From IMG/VR virus record IMGVR_UViG_2541047722_000004: a DNA stretch of 18,710 bases. One strand, given 5' to 3'. A program made the translations under genes and the position numbers. The notes beneath the pieces were generated by a model. That model saw nothing but the letters and a program-made list of their open reading frames with translations. It searched no databases and was not told where the DNA came from. Positions 670-6,599 of this stretch are shown here, piece after piece; the stretch's first letter is position 1; every line of letters begins with the position of its first letter. The DNA comes from a virus. Lineage: Duplodnaviria > Heunggongvirae > Uroviricota > Caudoviricetes.

Positions 670-703
670 TATAATCATAATGTTGCAGCAAGGTGGTTAT
701 AAT
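670..703 (+). promoter_or_regulatory. Possible sigma70 -10 elements (TATAAT at 670-675 and 698-703) upstream of trkG
   Basis: Two exact TATAAT hexamers in the AT-rich intergenic region before the trkG ATG at 721. No convincing -35 at canonical spacing; weak call by eye. Confidence 0.25.
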
Positions 704-720
704 TGAAAGAATATTTAGAT

Positions 721-2178
721 ATGAATACATCTCATGTAAGAGTTGTTACTCATATGTGTGGGTTCCTGGTTTGGCTCTATAGTCTTTCAATGTTGCCACC
801 AATGGTTGTAGCATTGTTTTATAAAGAAAAAAGCCTGTTCGTTTTCTTTATAACTTTCGTTATATTTTTTTGCATTGGTGGCGGAGCGTGGTATACAACT
901 AAGAAATCTGGTATTCAATTACGTACCCGTGATGGGTTTATTATAATTGTAATGTTTTGGATTTTGTTTTCTGTTATTAGTGCATTCCCTTTATGGATTG
1001 ACTCAGAACTTAATTTAACGTTTATTGATGCTCTATTTGAAGGGGTTTCTGGAATAACAACAACAGGAGCAACTGTAATTGATGATGTTAGTTCATTACC
1101 TCGGGCATATTTGTACTATCGGTCACAGTTAAATTTTATAGGTGGCTTAGGAGTTATTGTTCTGGCGGTTGCTGTATTGCCATTATTGGGTATTGGTGGT
1201 GCAAAGCTTTATCAGTCAGAAATGCCAGGGCCATTTAAGGATGACAAACTTACTCCCCGCCTGGCCGATACGTCACGGACACTTTGGATAACTTATTCTT
1301 TATTAGGTATTGCTTGTATTGTCTGTTATAGACTTGCAGGAATGCCTTTGTTTGATGCTATTTGTCACGGGATATCCACAGTTTCGCTTGGTGGTTTCTC
1401 AACTCATAGCGAGAGTATCGGATATTTTAATAACTATTTGGTTGAGCTGGTGGCTGGTTCTTTTTCCCTGCTATCGGCTTTCAACTTCACCCTTTGGTAT
1501 ATTGTTATTAGCAGGAAAACGTTAAAACCTTTAATCAGAGATATTGAACTTCGTTTCTTTCTGTTAATAGCCTTAGGGGTGATCATTGTTACCTCTTTCC
1601 AGGTCTGGCATATAGGTATGTATGACTTGCCTGGAAGTTTTATTCATTCGTTTTTTCTTGCCAGCTCCATGCTCACTGATAATGGTTTAGCTACGCAGGA
1701 TTACGCAAACTGGCCCACGCACACGATAGTGTTTTTGCTGTTGTCAAGTTTCTTTGGGGGATGTATAGGTTCAACTTGTGGTGGAATTAAGTCACTTCGA
1801 TTTCTTATACTTTTCAAACAAAGCAAACACGAGATAAACCAGCTTTCTCATCCCAGAGCGTTGTTGAGTGTAAATGTAGGAGGGAAGATAGTTACAGATC
1901 GTGTAATGAGGTCTGTATGGAGTTTCTTTTTTCTTTATACTCTCTTCACGGTGTTTTTTATACTGGTGTTAAATGGTATGGGATATGATTTTCTTACATC
2001 ATTTGCAACAGTGGCTGCATGTATTAATAATATGGGATTAGGTTTTGGGGCTACTGCATCGTCATTCGGAGTGCTTAATGACATTGCAAAATATTTAATG
2101 TGCATAGCTATGATTCTTGGTCGCCTTGAAATTTATCCTGTTATTATATTGTTTTCAGGTTTTTTTTGGCGCTCCTAA
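721..2178 (+). CDS. trkG: TrkG, TrkH-family K+ uptake membrane protein (prophage moron)
   Basis: 485 aa from ATG 721 (the track ORF opens at TTG 703). Multi-pass hydrophobic protein with TrkH/KtrB-type pore-loop glycines (e.g. GITTTGATV, VSLGGFS, NNMGLGFG). Sequence and position after Rz/Rz1 match E. coli Rac prophage trkG as I recall it. Visibly more AT-rich than flanking phage genes. Confidence 0.9.
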   Translation: MNTSHVRVVTHMCGFLVWLYSLSMLPPMVVALFYKEKSLFVFFITFVIFFCIGGGAWYTTKKSGIQLRTRDGFIIIVMFWILFSVISAFPLWIDSELNLTFIDALFEGVSGITTTGATVIDDVSSLPRAYLYYRSQLNFIGGLGVIVLAVAVLPLLGIGGAKLYQSEMPGPFKDDKLTPRLADTSRTLWITYSLLGIACIVCYRLAGMPLFDAICHGISTVSLGGFSTHSESIGYFNNYLVELVAGSFSLLSAFNFTLWYIVISRKTLKPLIRDIELRFFLLIALGVIIVTSFQVWHIGMYDLPGSFIHSFFLASSMLTDNGLATQDYANWPTHTIVFLLLSSFFGGCIGSTCGGIKSLRFLILFKQSKHEINQLSHPRALLSVNVGGKIVTDRVMRSVWSFFFLYTLFTVFFILVLNGMGYDFLTSFATVAACINNMGLGFGATASSFGVLNDIAKYLMCIAMILGRLEIYPVIILFSGFFWRS

Positions 2179-2264: not shown

Positions 2265-2299
2265 CCCCAGTAGCACTGGCTGCTGGGGTGCGTTTTATT
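2265..2299 (+). terminator. Putative intrinsic terminator downstream of trkG
   Basis: 10-bp stem (2265-2274 CCCCAGTAGC pairing with 2279-2288 GCTGCTGGGG, one G-U pair) with loop ACTG, followed 4 nt later by TTTTATT (2293-2299). Confidence 0.45.
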
Positions 2300-2315: not shown

Positions 2316-3107
2316 ATGAGCGAGAAATTGAAGATCGTCTATCGCCCTTTACAAGAACTGTCTCCGTATGCACACAACGCCAGGACACACAGCCCTGAGC
2401 AGGTGGCACAACTGGTAGAAAGCATTAAGCAATTCGGCTGGACTAATCCGGTGCTGATTGATGAAAAGGGCGAAATTATTGCTGGTCACGGTCGCGTTAT
2501 GGCGGCTGAAGTGCTCAAAATGGATTCCATTCCGGTCATCGTTCTGTCTGGTTTGATGGATGATCAGAAAAAGGCGTACCGCCTGGCAGATAATCGCCTG
2601 CCGCTGAACGCTGGCTGGGATGAAGAACTGTTGCGGATGGAGCTGTCGGAGCTAATCAATGCTGATTTTGATATCTCCCTGACAGGATTCAGCCCGACAG
2701 AAATTGATGAACTGTTGACGGATGTTTTGCCAGGTACAGGAAATGAGGAGGAGCCGTACACGACGAAAATTGATACGCCTGTTTATGAGCCGTCGGGCGA
2801 TAAACCGGACATCAGTGAGCTGTACGACGATACGAAAACTCAGGAGCTGATCAGCCGGATACGTTCGGCGTCCCTTGAGCCCGATATCGAAAAATTCCTC
2901 CTGTGCGCGGCAGAACGCCACACGGTGTTTAATTTCAGCAGAATTGCGGACTATTACGCTCACGCCCCCGCTGAAATTCAGTGTTTTTTCGAGGAGTCGG
3001 CGCTGGTGATCATTGATTATCAGCAGGCTATTGAAAATGGATTTGTCCGGATGACGCAGCGCATGGTGGAGATCATGCATGGTGGTGAGGAGGAGGAATA
3101 TGCGTGA
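2316..3107 (+). CDS. ParB-like nuclease (ParB/Srx N-terminal domain) protein with an uncharacterised C-terminal domain
   Basis: 263 aa. N-terminal region (YRPLQELSPYAHNARTHSPEQVAQLVESIKQFGWTNPVLIDEKGEIIAGHGRVMAA) has the ParB/Srx motif pattern. The short K-12 Rac ORF ynaK next to trkG appears, from memory, to be an N-terminal fragment of this type of gene. Stop overlaps the next gene. Confidence 0.75.
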   Translation: MSEKLKIVYRPLQELSPYAHNARTHSPEQVAQLVESIKQFGWTNPVLIDEKGEIIAGHGRVMAAEVLKMDSIPVIVLSGLMDDQKKAYRLADNRLPLNAGWDEELLRMELSELINADFDISLTGFSPTEIDELLTDVLPGTGNEEEPYTTKIDTPVYEPSGDKPDISELYDDTKTQELISRIRSASLEPDIEKFLLCAAERHTVFNFSRIADYYAHAPAEIQCFFEESALVIIDYQQAIENGFVRMTQRMVEIMHGGEEEEYA

Positions 3108-4032
3108 TGATTTTTGCGCCTTTATTCTGACTCACGGGCGACCGGACAAAGTTCTGACTTACCGGACGTTGCGTCGTGCTGGCTATACCGGGAAAATTTT
3201 TATCGTTGTTGATGATGAAGATAAGACACGGCATCAGTACATGGCTGAATTTGGTGAACAGGTGCTGGTGTTTTCCAAAGCCGATATCGCCAGTCGTTTT
3301 GACGAAGCCGATAATTTCGGTGACCGCCGCTCAATTTTTTACGCCCGTAATGCCTGTTTCGACCTGGCAAAACTGGTCGGGTGTAAATACTTCATTCAGC
3401 TCGATGATGATTATCACGAGTTCCAGTTTCGGGTGGATCGCAACTATGACCAGGCCTATTTTCCGATAAGGAAACTGGATGCGATCCTTTCTGAAATGCT
3501 GGCGTACTACGAATCAATACCTGCTCTTTCCATCGCTATGTCGCAGGGCGGGGATTTTCTTGGTGACAATGGCGGCCATGCTTCGTGGGTGAAACGCAAG
3601 GCAATGAACAGCTTTATCTGTTCGGTTGATCGACCGTTCTCATTCATGGGGCGCATTAACGAGGATGTGAATACGTACACGAATCTCGGTCGCTGTGGTG
3701 AATTGTTTATGACGATCGGTGCTGTCCAGTTAGGGCAGAAACAGACGCAGAAAAACAGCGGCGGAATGACCGAGCTGTATCTGGATTCCGGAACCTACGT
3801 TAAAAGTTTTTACTCCGTCATGTATGCGCCGTCGTGCGTAAAAATCTCACTGATGGGTGCCAGCCATAAACGCATTCACCATCAGGTCACTTGGAACAAC
3901 GCTGCAGTAAAAATCCTTCACGAAAAATACAGGAAGAAGACACCCTGCATATCAATAGGGGTGACAAATGATTCCATATTCGAAAGTCGAGTCTCTGGCA
4001 GCGTGCCGGATGACTGCACAACAAATCGCTGA
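3100..4032 (+). CDS. Hypothetical protein, possible GT-A-fold nucleotide-sugar transferase (DxD motif)
   Basis: ATG at 3100 preceded by strong SD GAGGAGGAGG (3087-3096); the track ORF opens at 3079. Overlaps the ParB-like gene stop by 8 nt. Motifs resemble GT-A/GT2 enzymes: FILTHGRPDKV (first strand plus loop), IFIVVDDEDK, and FIQLDDDYHEF (DxD). Fold assignment is by motif resemblance only. Confidence 0.55.
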   Translation: MRDDFCAFILTHGRPDKVLTYRTLRRAGYTGKIFIVVDDEDKTRHQYMAEFGEQVLVFSKADIASRFDEADNFGDRRSIFYARNACFDLAKLVGCKYFIQLDDDYHEFQFRVDRNYDQAYFPIRKLDAILSEMLAYYESIPALSIAMSQGGDFLGDNGGHASWVKRKAMNSFICSVDRPFSFMGRINEDVNTYTNLGRCGELFMTIGAVQLGQKQTQKNSGGMTELYLDSGTYVKSFYSVMYAPSCVKISLMGASHKRIHHQVTWNNAAVKILHEKYRKKTPCISIGVTNDSIFESRVSGSVPDDCTTNR

Positions 4033-4219
4033 CGTTCTGGATGTTGATCTGAACCGACTGAAAGAAAATCGGGAAGCAATGACAGATTTTTATGCGGCCA
4101 TCCGTAAGGGCAGAGCGAAAGGTGAAGCCGAGTTACGAGCGGCATTGTTTAAGCTTGCCAGAAAAGGGGATGCCTTTGCTCTGCGCGAACTACTCAGGGT
4201 GGATAAAAATCAGGACTAA
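3968..4219 (+). CDS. Small hypothetical protein, possibly HTH DNA-binding (packaging-associated)
   Basis: 83 aa from ATG 3968 (SD-like GGGGTG 6 nt upstream); overlaps the 3-prime end of the preceding gene by 65 nt in another frame. An alternative start at ATG 4010 gives 69 aa. Helix-rich, basic (AQQIADVLDVDLNRLKENREAMTDFYAAIRKGRAKGEAELRAALFKLARKG). Ends 3 nt before terS. Confidence 0.45.
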   Translation: MIPYSKVESLAACRMTAQQIADVLDVDLNRLKENREAMTDFYAAIRKGRAKGEAELRAALFKLARKGDAFALRELLRVDKNQD

Positions 4220-4222
4220 CTG

Positions 4223-5317
4223 ATGAGCAGACCGGACTGGGGGGCGTTGCAGCAGGAGTATATTGCTGAATACACCCGCTCCGGTATATCTCCGGTGGCA
4301 TGGTGTGAAGCAAGGGGACTGAATTACGCAACAGCCCGTCGTTACATCAAAAAACCTCCGAAAAATGCGCAGACAGAAATGCGCAAAACTGCGCAAAAAA
4401 GTGCGCAGAAAAAATCTGCGCAGACTGCACAAAAGCGGAACGAAAAATCTCAGGAAAAAAAGCCAGTATTCGATGCGGGCCTGAATGAGGGCGACGCGGA
4501 GGAATTTTCGTTCTGTCCCGATGAATTCGGCATTTCTGACCAGCAGGCTAAGTTTGCGATGCTTGTTGCTCAGGGGAAAAAGCCGACAGAGGCGTACCGA
4601 CTAGCCGGTTATGAGGGGCAAGGTGCGACAGCTAACAGCAACGCCAGTCGTATGCTTAGAAATGCCAGGGTTTTTCGCGCTATCAGCTACTTCCGCAATC
4701 AGTACCAGAAACGCTATACCGCAGACCTGGATTTACTGGTGAGTCAGTTGATGGCCATTGTCCTGGCCGACCCCAATCAGCTTGCACAATTTCGCCGTGT
4801 TAACTGCCGTTATTGCTGGGGCGAGAATCATCTCTACCAGTGGCGCGATATAGCAGAATTCGACAAGGCAGCGGCGCAGGCTTCCAGAGATGGCAAACCC
4901 GAACCGGAATATGGAGGCCTCGGCTTTGTTGATAACGCCATACCCAATCCGGACTGCCCGAAGTGCTGCGGTGAGGGAACGGGACAGCTTTATATGGCTG
5001 ATACCACTCTGCTTGATGGGGATGCGCGGCAATTATATGCAGGGGCAAAACTCGGAAAATTCGGCGTTGAGATCCTGCTGGAGGATAAGGCTGCCGCCCG
5101 GCGTGAATTGTTGCGTTTGCTTTCTGCTGGCGGGGCTTTATGTGCAGATAAGCGGCTACAGGAACTGGAAATTGAACGACGCAGAATGGAAAACCAGAAG
5201 CTGCGCAAAGAGATCGAAACGGTGGAAGATAATGAACATCCCCAGCCTGTGGCGATCAATATTAATGTGGTTGATGCCAGAGTAAGGAGTGATGAAGATG
5301 ATCTCTCCGACGCTTAA
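4223..5317 (+). CDS. Terminase small subunit (Terminase_2-like core with N-terminal HTH, K/A/Q-rich linker and Cys4 motif)
   Basis: 364 aa. Core motif ISDQQAKFAMLVAQGKKPTEAYRLAGYEGQGATANSNASRMLRNARVFRAI matches the pattern of phage small terminase subunits. Sits immediately upstream of the large terminase gene and overlaps its start. Confidence 0.8.
   Translation: MSRPDWGALQQEYIAEYTRSGISPVAWCEARGLNYATARRYIKKPPKNAQTEMRKTAQKSAQKKSAQTAQKRNEKSQEKKPVFDAGLNEGDAEEFSFCPDEFGISDQQAKFAMLVAQGKKPTEAYRLAGYEGQGATANSNASRMLRNARVFRAISYFRNQYQKRYTADLDLLVSQLMAIVLADPNQLAQFRRVNCRYCWGENHLYQWRDIAEFDKAAAQASRDGKPEPEYGGLGFVDNAIPNPDCPKCCGEGTGQLYMADTTLLDGDARQLYAGAKLGKFGVEILLEDKAAARRELLRLLSAGGALCADKRLQELEIERRRMENQKLRKEIETVEDNEHPQPVAININVVDARVRSDEDDLSDA
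4366..4431. repeat. Array of five perfect TGCGCA palindromic hexamers plus one degenerate copy (TGCACA), spaced 10-15 bp with A-rich spacers
   Basis: TGCGCA at 4366, 4380, 4390, 4402, 4417 and TGCACA at 4426. Encodes the N-A-Q / M-R-K / T-A-Q / S-A-Q linker of TerS; the copy at 4380 is in a different codon phase from the others. Confidence 0.6.
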
Positions 5318-6599
5318 TGTGCCTCAGGCGCGATTTCTTTCAATGCCCCATAAATTTAAAGCCTATATTGCTGGTTTTGGCTCGGGCAAAACATGGGTTG
5401 GGTGTGGCGGCATATGCAAGGGGATTTGGGAGCATCCAGGTATAAATCAGGGATATTTTGCGCCAACGTATCCCCAAATTCGCGATATTTTTTACCCTAC
5501 AGTGGAAGAAGTTGCTGCTGACTGGGGATTGAACGTAAAAATTAATGAGGGAAATAAAGAGGTTCACTTTTATTACGGACGCCAGTATCGGGGAACCACT
5601 ATCTGCAGATCGATGGAGAAGCCACAAACGATCGTCGGTTTCAAAATTGGTAATGCGCTGGTGGATGAACTGGACATTTTGCCGAAGGAAAAAGCCAGAA
5701 CGGCGTGGCGCAAGATAATTGCGCGTATGCGTTATAAGATTGATGGACTTCGCAACGGTATTGACGTTACAACCACGCCGGAAGGATTCAAATTTGTCTA
5801 CGAGCAGTTTGTTAAAGCCGTGCGTGAAAAAACAGAGCTGGCCTCACTGTATGGTCTGGTGCAGGCATCTACTTTCGATAATGAAAAGAACCTGCCAGCA
5901 GATTACATTCCTTCGCTTCTTGAATCATACCCTCCAGAGCTGATTAAAGCCTATCTTCGAGGACAGTTTACTAACCTGACAAGTGGTACTGTTTACCATC
6001 AGTTTGACCGGAAACTGAATAATTGCGAAGAAGTGGAGCAGCCAGGGGAGCCGATTTATATTGGGATGGATTTTAACGTTGGAAAGATGGCGGGGATCGT
6101 CCATGTGCTGCGTTTGGGGCTTCCATGTGCGGTAACTGAAATCATCAATGCCTACGATACGCCGGATATGATCCGCATCATTAAAGAACGCTTCTGGCTG
6201 TATGACGGGAATGATTACCGGAAAGTGAGGGAGATTTATATTTATCCAGATGCTTCCGGAGATTCCAGAAAATCAAGTAACGCAAGTACGACGGATATAG
6301 CCCAGCTTAAGCAGGCTGGTTTTAACGTTGTGGTGAACAGCTCGAACCCGCCAGTAAAAGATCGCGTTAACTCAATGAATGCAATGTTCTGCAATGCCAA
6401 TGGTGAGCGTCGCTATAAAGTTAATGTGAAGCGTTGTCCGGTATATGCCGAATCTCTGGAGCAACAGGTCTGGGATGATAAGGGGGAGCCTGATAAAAAA
6501 TCTGGCAATGATCACCCGAATGATGCCGGAGGTTATTTCATCGTTAAGCAATTCCCTATTGTCAAACCGACCGGAAGAGTCACATCACTTCGGATTTAA
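5298..6599 (+). CDS. Terminase large subunit
   Basis: Walker A motif (AGFGSGKT) near the N-terminus, then an ATPase region and C-terminal nuclease-like region. SD AAGGAG at 5284-5289 favours ATG 5298; GTG 5289 and ATG 5292 are alternative starts (the track ORF starts at 5289). Confidence 0.9.
   Translation: MISPTLNVPQARFLSMPHKFKAYIAGFGSGKTWVGCGGICKGIWEHPGINQGYFAPTYPQIRDIFYPTVEEVAADWGLNVKINEGNKEVHFYYGRQYRGTTICRSMEKPQTIVGFKIGNALVDELDILPKEKARTAWRKIIARMRYKIDGLRNGIDVTTTPEGFKFVYEQFVKAVREKTELASLYGLVQASTFDNEKNLPADYIPSLLESYPPELIKAYLRGQFTNLTSGTVYHQFDRKLNNCEEVEQPGEPIYIGMDFNVGKMAGIVHVLRLGLPCAVTEIINAYDTPDMIRIIKERFWLYDGNDYRKVREIYIYPDASGDSRKSSNASTTDIAQLKQAGFNVVVNSSNPPVKDRVNSMNAMFCNANGERRYKVNVKRCPVYAESLEQQVWDDKGEPDKKSGNDHPNDAGGYFIVKQFPIVKPTGRVTSLRI

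Follow-up and report, generated by a model that had tools for sequence, protein, structure and literature searches.

A translationally coupled ParB-like protein and TAGT-family glycosyltransferase encoded upstream of phage terminase genes: a candidate DNA glycosylation module

Two overlapping genes located just 5′ of the DNA-packaging genes of a Rac-like E. coli prophage encode a ParB-like protein and a putative glycosyltransferase, which raises the question of what such a pair modifies. The window analysed here is a stretch of 18,710 nucleotides from this element (IMG/VR virus record IMGVR_UViG_2541047722_000004). An earlier note on this DNA had proposed that the ParB-like protein supplies DNA binding and the second protein a sugar transfer, so that the pair could glycosylate phage DNA or a virion component. 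In our preferred reading, to which we give about an even chance, the cassette is a late-expressed, ParB-guided DNA glycosylation module.

The gene pair and its products

The ORF for 263 aa and the one ending at 4032, their 8-nt overlap (ATGCGTGA) and the Shine-Dalgarno sequence described in the earlier note are all present in the window (Table 1), and the motifs GHGRVMAA, FILTHGRPDKV, IFIVVDDEDK and FIQLDDDYHEF were found in the translations. At the junction (...GGTGGTGAGGAGGAGGAATATGCGTGATGA), the ATG of the downstream gene at 3100 precedes the TGA of the upstream gene at 3105-3107, and the same two genes with the identical 8-nt overlap are annotated in E. coli 042 in RefSeq. The length of the second protein needed correcting: counted from this ATG, it has 310 aa, the 311 given previously being the number of codons including the stop. 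An alternative in-frame ATG at 3079 would yield 317 aa; the annotated start is a different one.

Upstream of the cassette, a pattern scan detected a putative terminator in which 7 of the pairs of the 10-bp stem are GC and TGCGTTTTAT follows the stem. The cassette is presumably transcribed by antiterminated late read-through. The small ORF which overlaps the 3′ end of the glycosyltransferase gene matched phrog_309 (terminase small subunit) with an E value of 8.3e-23, is annotated in E. coli 042 and has a homologue at position +1 in 10 non-redundant loci; it is probably part of the small-terminase function.

Table 1 Features of the cassette and its surroundings in the window
Feature	Position	Strand	Basis
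Terminator-like hairpin and T-run between the trkG moron and the cassette	2265..2297	+	Pattern scan
Partner gene, full-length YnaK, 263 aa, acidic	2316..3107	+	ORF list; phrog_620; RefSeq
ParB/Srx N-terminal module and two helices, aa 1-140	2316..2735	+	Pfam, PADLOC, PHROG, Foldseek
Invariant linker motif in predicted disordered segment	2757..2807	+	Alignment of 70 partners; AF2 pLDDT
Helical C-domain, aa 172-255, without Pfam family	2829..3080	+	Alignments
Shine-Dalgarno GAGGAGGAGGA of the TAGT gene, within the 3′ end of the partner gene	3088..3098	+	Sequence
TAGT-family GT-A glycosyltransferase, 310 aa, basic	3100..4032	+	ORF; Pfam TAGT
DxD metal and nucleotide-sugar site, D102 D103 D104	3403..3411	+	Invariant in homologues
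Clade-specific conserved C-terminal region, aa 223-285	3766..3954	+	Downstream of Pfam TAGT model end
Small ORF overlapping the TAGT 3′ end, 69 aa from 4010 (83 aa from 3968)	4010..4219	+	phrog_309
Terminase small (4223-5317) and large (5289-6599) subunit genes	4223..6599	+	Pfam Terminase_2, phrog_51, RefSeq

The downstream gene encodes a member of the TAGT (TET-associated glycosyltransferase) family, which is said to have been defined by Iyer et al. in 2013, in NAR 41:7635. The Pfam TAGT profile (PF20691) matched the protein with 121.5 bits (cut-off 27.5; E 6e-35), residues 8-222 being aligned with profile positions 4-205 of 205, and PHROG 842 matched it at 2.4e-103. A sequence search for a solved structure of the protein yielded none. 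The protein has a GT-A fold, and glycogenin and SunS, GT-A enzymes that glycosylate protein or peptide, are among its structural neighbours. D102-D104 are invariant in 13 sequences from bacteria and an archaeal virus as well as in 29 further homologues. R14 and D189 are also invariant, E188 is invariant in the 29 close homologues and almost invariant in the more diverse 13 sequences, and V190 occupies the position of Y/F in the motif R...DDD...ED(Y/F). The R...DDD...ED motif is common to phage DNA GT-A enzymes and JGT (bioRxiv 10.1101/2023.12.21.572611). The GT-A glycosyltransferase with an intact DxD motif, suspected from short sequence motifs, is supported by family, fold and invariant residues.

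The Pfam match stops at residue 222 and is followed by a conserved region (aa 223-285; MTELY..GTYVKSFYSVM..PS...RIHH..W) in which Y227, G231, T232, K235, F237, Y238, P244, R258, H260, H261 and W265 are invariant. This region is missing from the partner-less tandem paralogues (TAGT2), and in the monomer model it lies within the C-terminal half, which has low pLDDT. It may bind the partner or the acceptor. The TAGT proteins are basic, with a median pI of 8.7.

The partner is the full-length YnaK protein. It matched phrog_620 (1.5e-88 over residues 1-250), is named 'ParB/Srx family N-terminal domain-containing protein' in RefSeq and ynaK in several genomes, and the K-12 ynaK gene (87 aa) is an N-terminal remnant of it; a literature search for ynaK returned nothing relevant. 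The ParB_N profile (PF02195) matched marginally, with 28 bits against a cut-off of 26.3 (E 2.3e-6), a profile search reached Noc and ParB structures at about 1e-5, and Foldseek of the N-terminal domain retrieved Noc, ParB-CDP, PadC, KorB, Srx and SerK with a probability of 1.00. The ParB/Srx domain recognized in the earlier note is therefore supported by both profile and fold. Among 70 non-redundant partners, the conserved residues of the N-module are N21 (at least 95%), G57-H58-x-R60 and D92-N93. The segment G57-H58-G59-R60 corresponds to the nucleotide-binding box II (GxxR), with G57 conserved in at least 95% and R60 in at least 80% of the partners, and nucleotide binding is predicted.

In the AF2 model, the N-module (aa 1-140) mostly has pLDDT above 70 and is followed by a disordered linker, with residues 136-157 below 50, and by an unrelated helical domain modelled with low confidence. 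The linker carries the motif Y148-[T/S]149-x-K-I-x-x-P155-x-Y157-E-P-x-G-x-x-P164. Y148, P155 and Y157 are kept in 70/70 partners, so that phenylalanine never takes the place of either tyrosine, and residue 149 is T in 56 and S in 14 of them. The motif persists in partners lacking the ParB domain, such as that of Vibrio phage pv27 (YTRKIEIPIYEPKN). The C-domain, with the signature FL..AA.RH.VF.F..IA.YYAH....Q.L.E.SALVIID..AIENG, has no Pfam family and gave only repeated sub-threshold matches to PF23887 (E about 0.03-0.05) and PF06793. Its profile retrieved 1410 representatives at 50% identity, 834 of them at E<=1e-30; in the 150 best of the 1410, the domain is almost always C-terminal, in proteins of ~130 aa or 250-300 aa.

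All three segments of the partner are acidic and contain neither an HTH nor any other recognizable DNA-binding domain, while the TAGT protein is basic. The suggestion that the ParB-like protein supplies DNA binding is therefore not supported. Nor is the partner a partition protein, although phage records label it as a 'partitioning protein'. It shares with partition ParB proteins (Spo0J, Noc, KorB) the N-domain fold, the GxxR arginine and the box III asparagine, but it is acidic and has neither HTH nor ParA, and at the CTP-hydrolysis positions it carries N in place of Q and H in place of E. The TIGR00180 profile (partition ParB) reached 36 bits, below the cut-off of 58.45, over residues 11-93 only, and parA is absent from the annotation of the E. 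coli 042 prophage.

Distribution and genomic context of the cassette

The set of TAGT loci comprised 93 clusters at 85% identity, 91 of which have upstream DNA, and in all 91 the partner gene lies directly upstream on the same strand. These loci include Lactobacillus, Nocardia, Vibrio and Porphyromonas phages and the haloarchaeal virus HHTV-2. The pairing is far beyond chance, and the co-occurrence of the two families, noticed before at this locus alone, was thus found in very distant viruses. When all neighbours of the 93 loci were clustered, TAGT and its partner were the only universal families; no third conserved gene was detected, and terminase families alone recurred. The ParB N-domain is absent in about 10% of the loci, and the constant core consists of the linker motif, the C-domain and TAGT. 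In the proposed division of labour, sugar transfer by the GT-A protein agrees with its family, whereas the part which always accompanies TAGT is the linker motif with the unannotated C-domain and not the ParB domain.

The hosts are Enterobacteria, Firmicutes, Actinobacteria, Bacteroidota and haloarchaea, and TAGT identity stays at 40-65% across them. This speaks for an acceptor that all these hosts have in common and against a glycan or protein specific to certain hosts. Purifying selection on both genes is strong (dN 0.13-0.30, dS saturated, omega about 0.1 where computable), and of 5426 complete E. coli genomes, 889 carry an intact pair.

Candidates for a fusion of the two families were rejected. 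In Aeromonas phage Ah1, a TAGT-like protein is extended at its N-terminus by a segment with PHYEP, which resembles P-x-Y-E-P of the partner; this Rosetta-stone likeness was judged to be chance, as the homologues from PTm1, Kuja, POP12 and Vibrio phage 1.124.O show MPIFQ, MPEHT, MPHFD and MPRFN instead and the partner profile scores just E 0.05. The long TAGT ORFs at two further loci (L008 and L163) are upstream in-frame extensions and not fusions.

The cassette precedes terminases of at least five Pfam families, and the first large downstream gene encodes a terminase subunit in at least 58 of 71 cases. Versions without the ParB domain sit in replication modules, between DNA polymerase A and the sliding clamp, dUTPase and RecA. 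The common denominator of the two contexts is DNA, which we count in favour of DNA as the target. The earlier note had also pointed out that lambdoid prophages often carry DNA-modifying genes, such as ParB-methyltransferase fusions, directly upstream of the packaging genes; the N-module of the partner is indeed the same as in phage DNA methyltransferase fusions found at this genomic position. Positions 13-151 of the PADLOC MTase_II profile matched partner residues 10-144 at 5.7e-37, phrog_498 (ParB-methyltransferase) matched the N-module at 2.8e-50, and in Streptococcus phage Javan28 a ParB-methyltransferase is encoded upstream of the terminase. A tblastn search with the N-module yielded 378 phage records, and among the matches listed many are annotated as DNA methylases. 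A QueH gene is present in the E. coli 042 prophage; it is not conserved with the cassette.

Other targets, namely RNA, a nucleotide or another small molecule (e.g. in anti-defence), or a non-catalytic role as a packaging accessory, seem improbable. ParB-CTPase folds are known to be fused to RNA-binding and RNA-methyltransferase domains and to bind various NTPs (bioRxiv 10.1101/2025.10.10.680097). Moreover, the partner at one locus (L118) has an N-terminal class I SAM methyltransferase domain, and a cytidylyltransferase-like gene lies 3′ of TAGT at another (L176). However, a non-catalytic role is disfavoured because the catalytic residues are invariant, and a packaging-specific role because the ParB-less versions are located away from the terminase. 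No PADLOC defence family matches TAGT, the partner matching the methyltransferase-type ParB module only, and positive evidence for RNA or a small molecule is lacking.

The acceptor and competing explanations

According to the preferred reading, the two proteins would together form a module for nucleic-acid glycosylation, expressed from the first genes of the late (packaging) operon of the phage. The basic, DxD-dependent TAGT protein would be the catalytic subunit using a nucleotide-sugar, and the acidic, translationally coupled partner would serve as its adaptor or activator. The linker motif and C-domain may engage TAGT, and the ParB/Srx N-module could allow the enzyme to act on double-stranded phage DNA. 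After replication, this DNA would receive sugars ahead of packaging or in the course of it and might consequently be shielded from restriction and other nucleases in the next host. The tandem TAGT paralogues recall sequential sugar addition and were counted in favour of DNA; the absence of an evident acceptor, the acidic partner without HTH, the protein-glycosylating GREB1 and the low-confidence models of the TAGT C-terminal half and the partner C-domain were counted against it.

To our knowledge, all TAGT acceptors are hydroxyl groups (those of 5hmU, 5hmC, glucosyl-hmC and protein Ser/Thr), and the bases of ordinary DNA carry no hydroxyl acceptor. No dioxygenase, hydroxymethylase or other enzyme supplying a modified base as acceptor is annotated in the complete E. 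coli 042 prophage. TET_JBP and thymidylate synthase are not among the 25 commonest families of 150 proteins encoded upstream at 44 loci, form no recurrent neighbour cluster in the 93 loci, and were not found in the replication-module loci. The glycosylation of DNA proposed for the pair is therefore in agreement with the enzyme family and the pairing but not with the lack of a hydroxymethyl-base maker in the prophage and cassettes, and we infer rather than observe it. According to Pyle et al., contigs with glycosyltransferases but without 5mYOX or ThyS are less likely to encode DNA modification. As no hydroxymethyl pyrimidine is made, the acceptor on DNA would need to be something that ordinary DNA offers, which would mean new chemistry. 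That a sugar is installed directly on ordinary, non-hydroxymethylated DNA, with the ParB-like adaptor as a guide and a base nitrogen, exocyclic or in the ring, as one conceivable site, seems unlikely to us.

The enzyme might instead be a classical hydroxymethyl-pyrimidine glycosyltransferase that receives 5hmC or 5hmU through a gene located elsewhere or on a co-infecting element and is idle or a relic here. It is from such enzymes that the protein has its Pfam label (TAGT) and its PHROG label ('beta-glucosyl-HMC-alpha-glucosyltransferase'), and glycosyltransferases (31%), ParBs (27%) and terminases (19%) are frequent on 5mYOX contigs (PMC13229309). On the other hand, the complete prophage gene list contains no candidate for the base-making enzyme, and TET/JBP and ThyS are not among the commonest families upstream at the 44 diverse loci, nor do they form a recurrent neighbour cluster. 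The strong purifying selection on both genes speaks against this explanation, and so does the number of E. coli genomes with an intact pair, which fits a relic poorly; we regard it as very improbable.

Protein glycosylation is a more serious possibility, though still on the unlikely side. TAGT would O-glycosylate the partner linker (Y148, T/S149, Y157) or another phage or host protein, and the ParB-like protein would be a substrate or carrier and not a DNA guide. The linker motif with the C-domain is the sole exceptionless companion of the TAGT clade, and the two never-replaced tyrosines and the strict Ser/Thr site lie in a predicted disordered segment, where glycosylation acceptor sites are often found. 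The acceptor-side half of TAGT and the linker motif are both extremely conserved, glycogenin and SunS are among the structural neighbours, and the problem of the missing acceptor disappears. A precedent is GREB1, whose TAGT domain glycosylates protein Ser/Thr (PMC7968844). However, a docking motif would be conserved equally well, and the polymerase/clamp and terminase contexts together with the methyltransferase-type ParB module point to DNA. In three of the five cases, tandem second TAGTs have no partner of their own. Furthermore, we know of no role for a glycosylated ParB-like protein.

Comparison with known systems and significance

A close parallel to a ParB-guided DNA glycosylation module is 5mYOX176, a phage thymine dioxygenase whose action on double-stranded DNA depends on its activator ParB176 (O'Toole et al., PNAS 2026; PMC13229309). 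Both systems combine a phage DNA-modification enzyme with a small ParB-like protein, and the 5mYOX/ParB clusters are also often close to terminase genes. ParB176 resembles the cassette partner in layout (a nucleotide-binding domain, short helices, a disordered linker of ~50 aa and a C-terminal domain, with no DNA-binding domain), as judged from our AF2 model set against the published description. In contrast to the 5mYOX176 system, the cassette encodes a glycosyltransferase instead of a dioxygenase: no dioxygenase was detected and the downstream gene is TAGT at every locus. ParB176 needs both its domains, whereas about 10% of the cassette loci do without the ParB N-domain.

The characterised TAGT-family enzymes which act on DNA bases are the trypanosome base-J glucosyltransferase JGT together with phage 5hmC GT-A enzymes (bioRxiv 10.1101/2023.12.21.572611), and also the second glucosyltransferase of T6 (PMC13390438). 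These enzymes and animal GREB1 have the sequence family, the GT-A fold and R...DDD...ED in common with the cassette protein. The DNA-acting members use a hydroxymethyl pyrimidine or a sugar already attached to one, and those of phages are co-encoded with base-making enzymes, while none were found with the cassette clade. This clade also differs from the characterised TAGTs in its extra conserved C-terminal region of 60 aa and its obligatory partner. The PHROG 842 label refers to the T-even beta-glucosyl-HMC-alpha-glucosyltransferase, an enzyme acting in hmC-making phages, and is not transferable to the protein of the prophage, in which no hmC pathway was found.

The ParB-N6/N4 methyltransferase fusions have a homologous N-module of ~140 aa (ParB domain and two helices; 30-55% identity) and are likewise encoded where the packaging operon begins, the presumed logic being that DNA is modified before packaging. 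In the cassette, the catalytic protein is separate and probably recruited via the C-domain, and sugar rather than methyl transfer is expected. Pfam detects no methyltransferase domain in the partner, whose residues 140-263 comprise the linker and the C-domain. The novelty of the ParB-glycosyltransferase pair, which the earlier note had left to a search, was upheld in part. In the library searched, no study was found that characterises a ParB-TAGT pair without a dioxygenase. ParB-like proteins beside phage DNA-modification enzymes have nevertheless been discussed since 2013 (cited in PMC8256090), and the ParB-activated dioxygenase is known (PMC13229309).

If DNA is modified, the cassette would represent a dioxygenase-independent route to glycosylated phage DNA, its acceptor could be a new base modification, and ParB-like activators would be extended from dioxygenases to glycosyltransferases. 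For temperate phages of E. coli, Salmonella, Klebsiella, lactobacilli, gut Bacteroidota and haloarchaea, the modification would have consequences in restriction, CRISPR and sequencing. Direct attachment of a sugar to ordinary DNA, if true, would be an undescribed DNA modification, encoded by roughly every sixth complete E. coli genome as well as by viruses of haloarchaea and of many bacterial phyla. Should the partner itself be the acceptor, the cassette would be a conserved viral protein-glycosylation system. The labels currently attached to the two families ('partitioning protein', 'beta-glucosyl-HMC-alpha-glucosyltransferase' and 'GREB1-related') are misleading, and the C-domain, with its many representatives and no Pfam entry, is a candidate new adaptor domain.

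The two-gene cassette and its conservation

The coupled ParB-like and GT-A-like gene pair that the earlier note had described in the window was borne out by the reading frames (2316–3107, encoding 263 aa, and a second one with its end at 4032), by the junction sequence and by the RefSeq annotation, which has both genes and an identical overlap. At the junction GGTGGTGAGGAGGAGGAATATGCGTGATGA, the ATG of the second gene at 3100 lies ahead of the stop codon of the first at 3105–3107, resulting in an overlap of 8 nt, and a Shine-Dalgarno sequence for the second gene, GAGGAGGAGGA, occupies 3088–3098. All of the motifs quoted for the two proteins were found; the second protein counts 310 aa instead of 311 aa. 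The first protein is here called the partner, and the second the TAGT, after its Pfam family.

Homologous loci were gathered from annotated phages, viral contigs, one genome per species and metagenome contigs; profiles were built for both proteins, TAGT sequences were clustered at 85% identity and ORFs were assigned with a simple rule, longest-ORF and greedy. Upstream DNA was available for 91 of the 93 TAGT clusters, and the partner gene was located directly upstream on the same strand in all 91, which answers in the affirmative the question of co-occurrence raised earlier. In the longest-ORF calls, the genes usually overlap by 4–41 nt. The 91 partners break down into 73 full-length and 8 C-domain-only forms, 7 truncated by a contig end, 2 split and 1 with the N-domain only. 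Among the hosts are Enterobacterales, Lactobacillus, Veillonella, Clostridia, Bacteroidota, Verrucomicrobiota, Actinobacteria, candidate phyla and Haloarcula (HHTV-2). Clustering of all neighbouring proteins left the partner and the TAGT as the sole universal families, and both genes are under strong purifying selection. The collected loci show that a translationally coupled partner is obligatory for this TAGT.

Domains of the partner and the glycosyltransferase

The ParB/Srx-type N-domain proposed for the partner was recovered by Pfam ParB_N, barely above the cut-off, and by Foldseek matches to Noc, ParB-CDP, PadC, KorB, Srx and SerK. The protein is not a partition ParB, since TIGR00180 scored well under its cut-off and both an HTH and parA are absent. 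Residues 10–144 align with the N-terminal part of a phage-type DNA methyltransferase profile (5.7e-37), and the partner matches PHROG 498 (ParB-methyltransferase) at 2.8e-50. By tblastn, the N-module occurs in 378 phage records, and many of the matches listed are annotated as DNA methylases. A ParB-methyltransferase fusion of Streptococcus phage Javan28 likewise lies just 5' of the terminase. These homologies show that the N-module is the one which phages attach to DNA methyltransferases.

Past residue ~135, a predicted disordered segment leads to a helical C-domain. The 70 non-redundant full-length partners share N21, G57-H58-x-R60, D92-N93 and W101-D102 in the N-domain, the linker motif Y148-[T/S]149-x-K-I-x-x-P155-x-Y157-E-P-x-G-x-x-P164 (both tyrosines and the proline in 70/70, position 149 always Thr or Ser) and the C-domain signature FL..AA.RH.VF.F..IA.YYAH....Q.L.E.SALVIID..AIENG. 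No Pfam family was found for the C-domain, whose own family has sharp bounds and counts 1410 representatives at 50% identity; in nearly all of the best 150 matches listed it is C-terminal, in proteins of ~130 or 250–300 aa. The median pI is 4.2–4.8 for the segments of the partner, which is acidic throughout, and 8.7 for the basic TAGT.

The GT-A-like identity suggested for the second protein also held, as judged from its sequence, its fold and its motif: the protein falls into Pfam TAGT PF20691 (121.5 bits vs a cut-off of 27.5) and PHROG 842. Over a range from E. coli prophages to Lactobacillus, Nocardia and haloarchaeal viruses, R14, D102–D104 and D189 never vary and E188 hardly does. These residues constitute the R...DDD...ED motif that phage DNA GT-A enzymes share with trypanosome JGT (bioRxiv 10.1101/2023.12.21.572611). 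Sixty more residues past the Pfam model (aa 223–285, ...GTYVKSFYSVM..PS...RIHH..W) are equally conserved. The comparison shows a TAGT that is catalytically intact in its motif and comes from a DNA-glycosylating family.

Genomic contexts and the source prophage

Cassettes with a full-length partner open the packaging operon. Of 71 non-redundant loci, at least 58 have a terminase subunit gene as the first large gene downstream, and these subunits span five Pfam terminase families. Lactobacillus phage c5 has the pair as ORF1 and ORF2, straight after the cos site, and in Nocardia phage NTR1 it is immediately 5' of TerL. Cassettes with C-domain-only partners (129–139 aa, motif kept) lie within replication modules of larger phages, typically in the order DnaB, primase, DNA polymerase A, (second divergent TAGT), C-domain protein, TAGT, (cytidylyltransferase-like gene), sliding clamp, dUTPase, RecA; Vibrio phage pv27 has the cassette between primase/exonuclease and helicase. 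The second TAGTs have lost the clade-specific C-terminal motifs. The contexts of the cassette are thus shown to be DNA packaging or DNA replication.

E. coli 042 and APEC O1 carry the pair with 99.9% identity. In 042, it resides in a complete Rac-like lambdoid prophage adjoining ttcA, with the order int, xis, ralR, recT, recE, kilR, sieB, ydaS/T/U/V, QueH moron, hokD, Q-type late control, two tRNAs, lysis genes, trkG, pair, small ORF, TerS, TerL, portal, head, tail. At least 80% of the pair was found in 889 of 5426 complete E. coli genomes. The cryptic Rac of K-12 retains only the first 87 codons of the partner gene as ynaK, fused by a deletion to ydaY, which lies ~11 kb downstream in the intact prophage, past the tail tube gene; the glycosyltransferase, terminase and head genes are gone. 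The E. coli TAGT has a ~25-aa tail without counterpart in other homologues, hence the overlap of its gene with the small ORF. Homologues of this ORF occur at position +1 in 10 non-redundant loci, and since it precedes a 364-aa Terminase_2 protein, the role of the small terminase may be shared between two genes. The QueH moron showed neither conservation with the cassette nor any link to it.

Coordinates of the cassette and of further features in the window and the comparison loci
Sequence	Position	Feature
Window	703-2178 (flanks to 2300)	trkG, TrkH-family potassium transporter (Pfam E 1.8e-143); low-GC moron (34-40% GC vs ~48-50% around) between Rz/Rz1 lysis genes and cassette
Window	2265-2288	Terminator-like hairpin, 3' of trkG
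Window	2316-3107 (+)	Partner gene
Window	3100-4032 (+)	TAGT gene
Window	3968/4010-4219	Small ORF overlapping TAGT gene 3' end; matches small-terminase phrog_309, profile positions 145-218 of 319
L001	12855-13520	QueH (epoxyqueuosine reductase) moron of 042 prophage, early-late region, outside window
L178 (NC_000913.3)	1425377-1425980	ynaK, N-terminal remnant of partner
L174	1-1142	Escherichia phage vB_EcoM-473R2: stand-alone 196-aa ParB-like protein, 62% identical to partner N-module; gene directly 5' of small gene and TerL, without TAGT
L118	189-1739	Class I SAM methyltransferase domain (Methyltransf_23/12/25, weak matches) fused N-terminally to ParB-C-domain partner
L150	122-967	Separate methyltransferase gene just 5' of partner
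L176	9121-11985	Tandem cassette
L177	9105-11387	Tandem cassette
L116	2970-5117	Tandem cassette
L146	8460-10906	Tandem cassette
L166	2-3267	Tandem cassette
L003	17837-20316	Four consecutive family-2 glycosyltransferase genes straight after capsid gene
L004	8659-11138	As L003
L179	2189-3388	Partner-less TAGT-like clade
L180	1315-2730	Partner-less TAGT-like clade
L181	1288-3976	Partner-less TAGT-like clade
L182	1492-2646	Partner-less TAGT-like clade
L183	1495-2658	Partner-less TAGT-like clade

The arrangement in vB_EcoM-473R2 is a third variant of the ParB module heading a packaging operon. The partner-less TAGT-like clade comes from large lytic phages (Aeh1/Ah1, PTm1, Kuja with two copies, POP12) and has its own conserved N-terminal extension of ~100 aa (W..MP.F ... 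TDKTKSIWFP).

Proposed function and comparison with known systems

Known TAGT pathways begin with a hydroxymethyl pyrimidine, supplied by a TET/JBP-type dioxygenase or a thymidylate-synthase-like hydroxymethylase. Within ~9–10 kb on either side of the cassette and in the whole of the complete, fully annotated 042 prophage, neither enzyme was found: not as a recurrent neighbour family, not among the families matched by 150 upstream proteins of 44 diverse loci (25 commonest Pfam families) and not in the replication-module loci. Some phage dioxygenases escape Pfam (PMC13229309). The cassette is a member of the TAGT family but lacks the association that gave the family its name. That the enzyme is a classical hydroxymethyl-base glycosyltransferase, idle here, is highly improbable, being contradicted by the purifying selection and by the consistently absent supplier.

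We propose late ParB-guided glycosylation of DNA, a reading to which we give about an even chance. The linker motif and the C-domain would bind the TAGT, the ParB module would let the enzyme reach duplex DNA, and, as a protection, sugar would be added to the DNA at a late stage of infection, either ahead of packaging or while it proceeds. Binding is suggested because the conserved C-terminal half of the TAGT and these partner segments are exactly the low-confidence parts of the monomer models, which were single chains built from shallow alignments of 25–29 sequences. A universal acceptor is favoured by the 40–65% identity that the TAGT retains over a host range reaching from bacteria to archaea. 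A protein acceptor, either the partner itself or another protein, is rather unlikely: the motif, disordered, universally co-inherited and with three hydroxyls that never vary, does resemble an acceptor site, and GREB1 is a TAGT that glycosylates protein (PMC7968844), but a docking motif would look alike and the genomic contexts point to DNA. For RNA, a nucleotide or a small molecule as the target, or for a non-catalytic role, no positive evidence emerged, and we consider these options improbable.

In its layout, and probably in its working, the cassette resembles two kinds of system with a different enzyme, the ParB-methyltransferase fusions and the ParB-dependent dioxygenases (PMC13229309). 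The layout of the partner equals the one described for ParB176, the activator of a phage thymine dioxygenase on duplex DNA (PMC13229309). The idea that ParB proteins steer modification enzymes to DNA during packaging is credited to Iyer et al. 2013 where PMC8256090 cites that work. Pyle et al. (bioRxiv 10.1101/2023.12.21.572611) noted ParB-like genes near phage glycosyltransferases and set aside the 65% of glycosyltransferase contigs without a dioxygenase or ThyS (the hydroxymethylase) as less likely DNA modifiers. A ParB-CTPase survey lists methyltransferase fusions and no glycosyltransferase partner (bioRxiv 10.1101/2025.10.10.680097). Since no study of the ParB-TAGT pair was found in the literature searched, the strict TAGT-partner cassette is new, as are the adaptor domain, which has no annotation, the invariant motif that goes with it, the finding that the ParB module is dispensable and the apparent independence from any hydroxymethylating enzyme.

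In the tandem cassettes, a second divergent TAGT gene precedes the genes for the C-domain protein and the main TAGT, and in L176 a cytidylyltransferase-like gene (PF01467) comes next. This suggests sequential sugar addition, possibly with a dedicated activated donor. The metagenomic phage of L003 and L004 also has a ParB-TAGT cassette, and its cluster of four glycosyltransferase genes may be a separate virion-glycosylation module.
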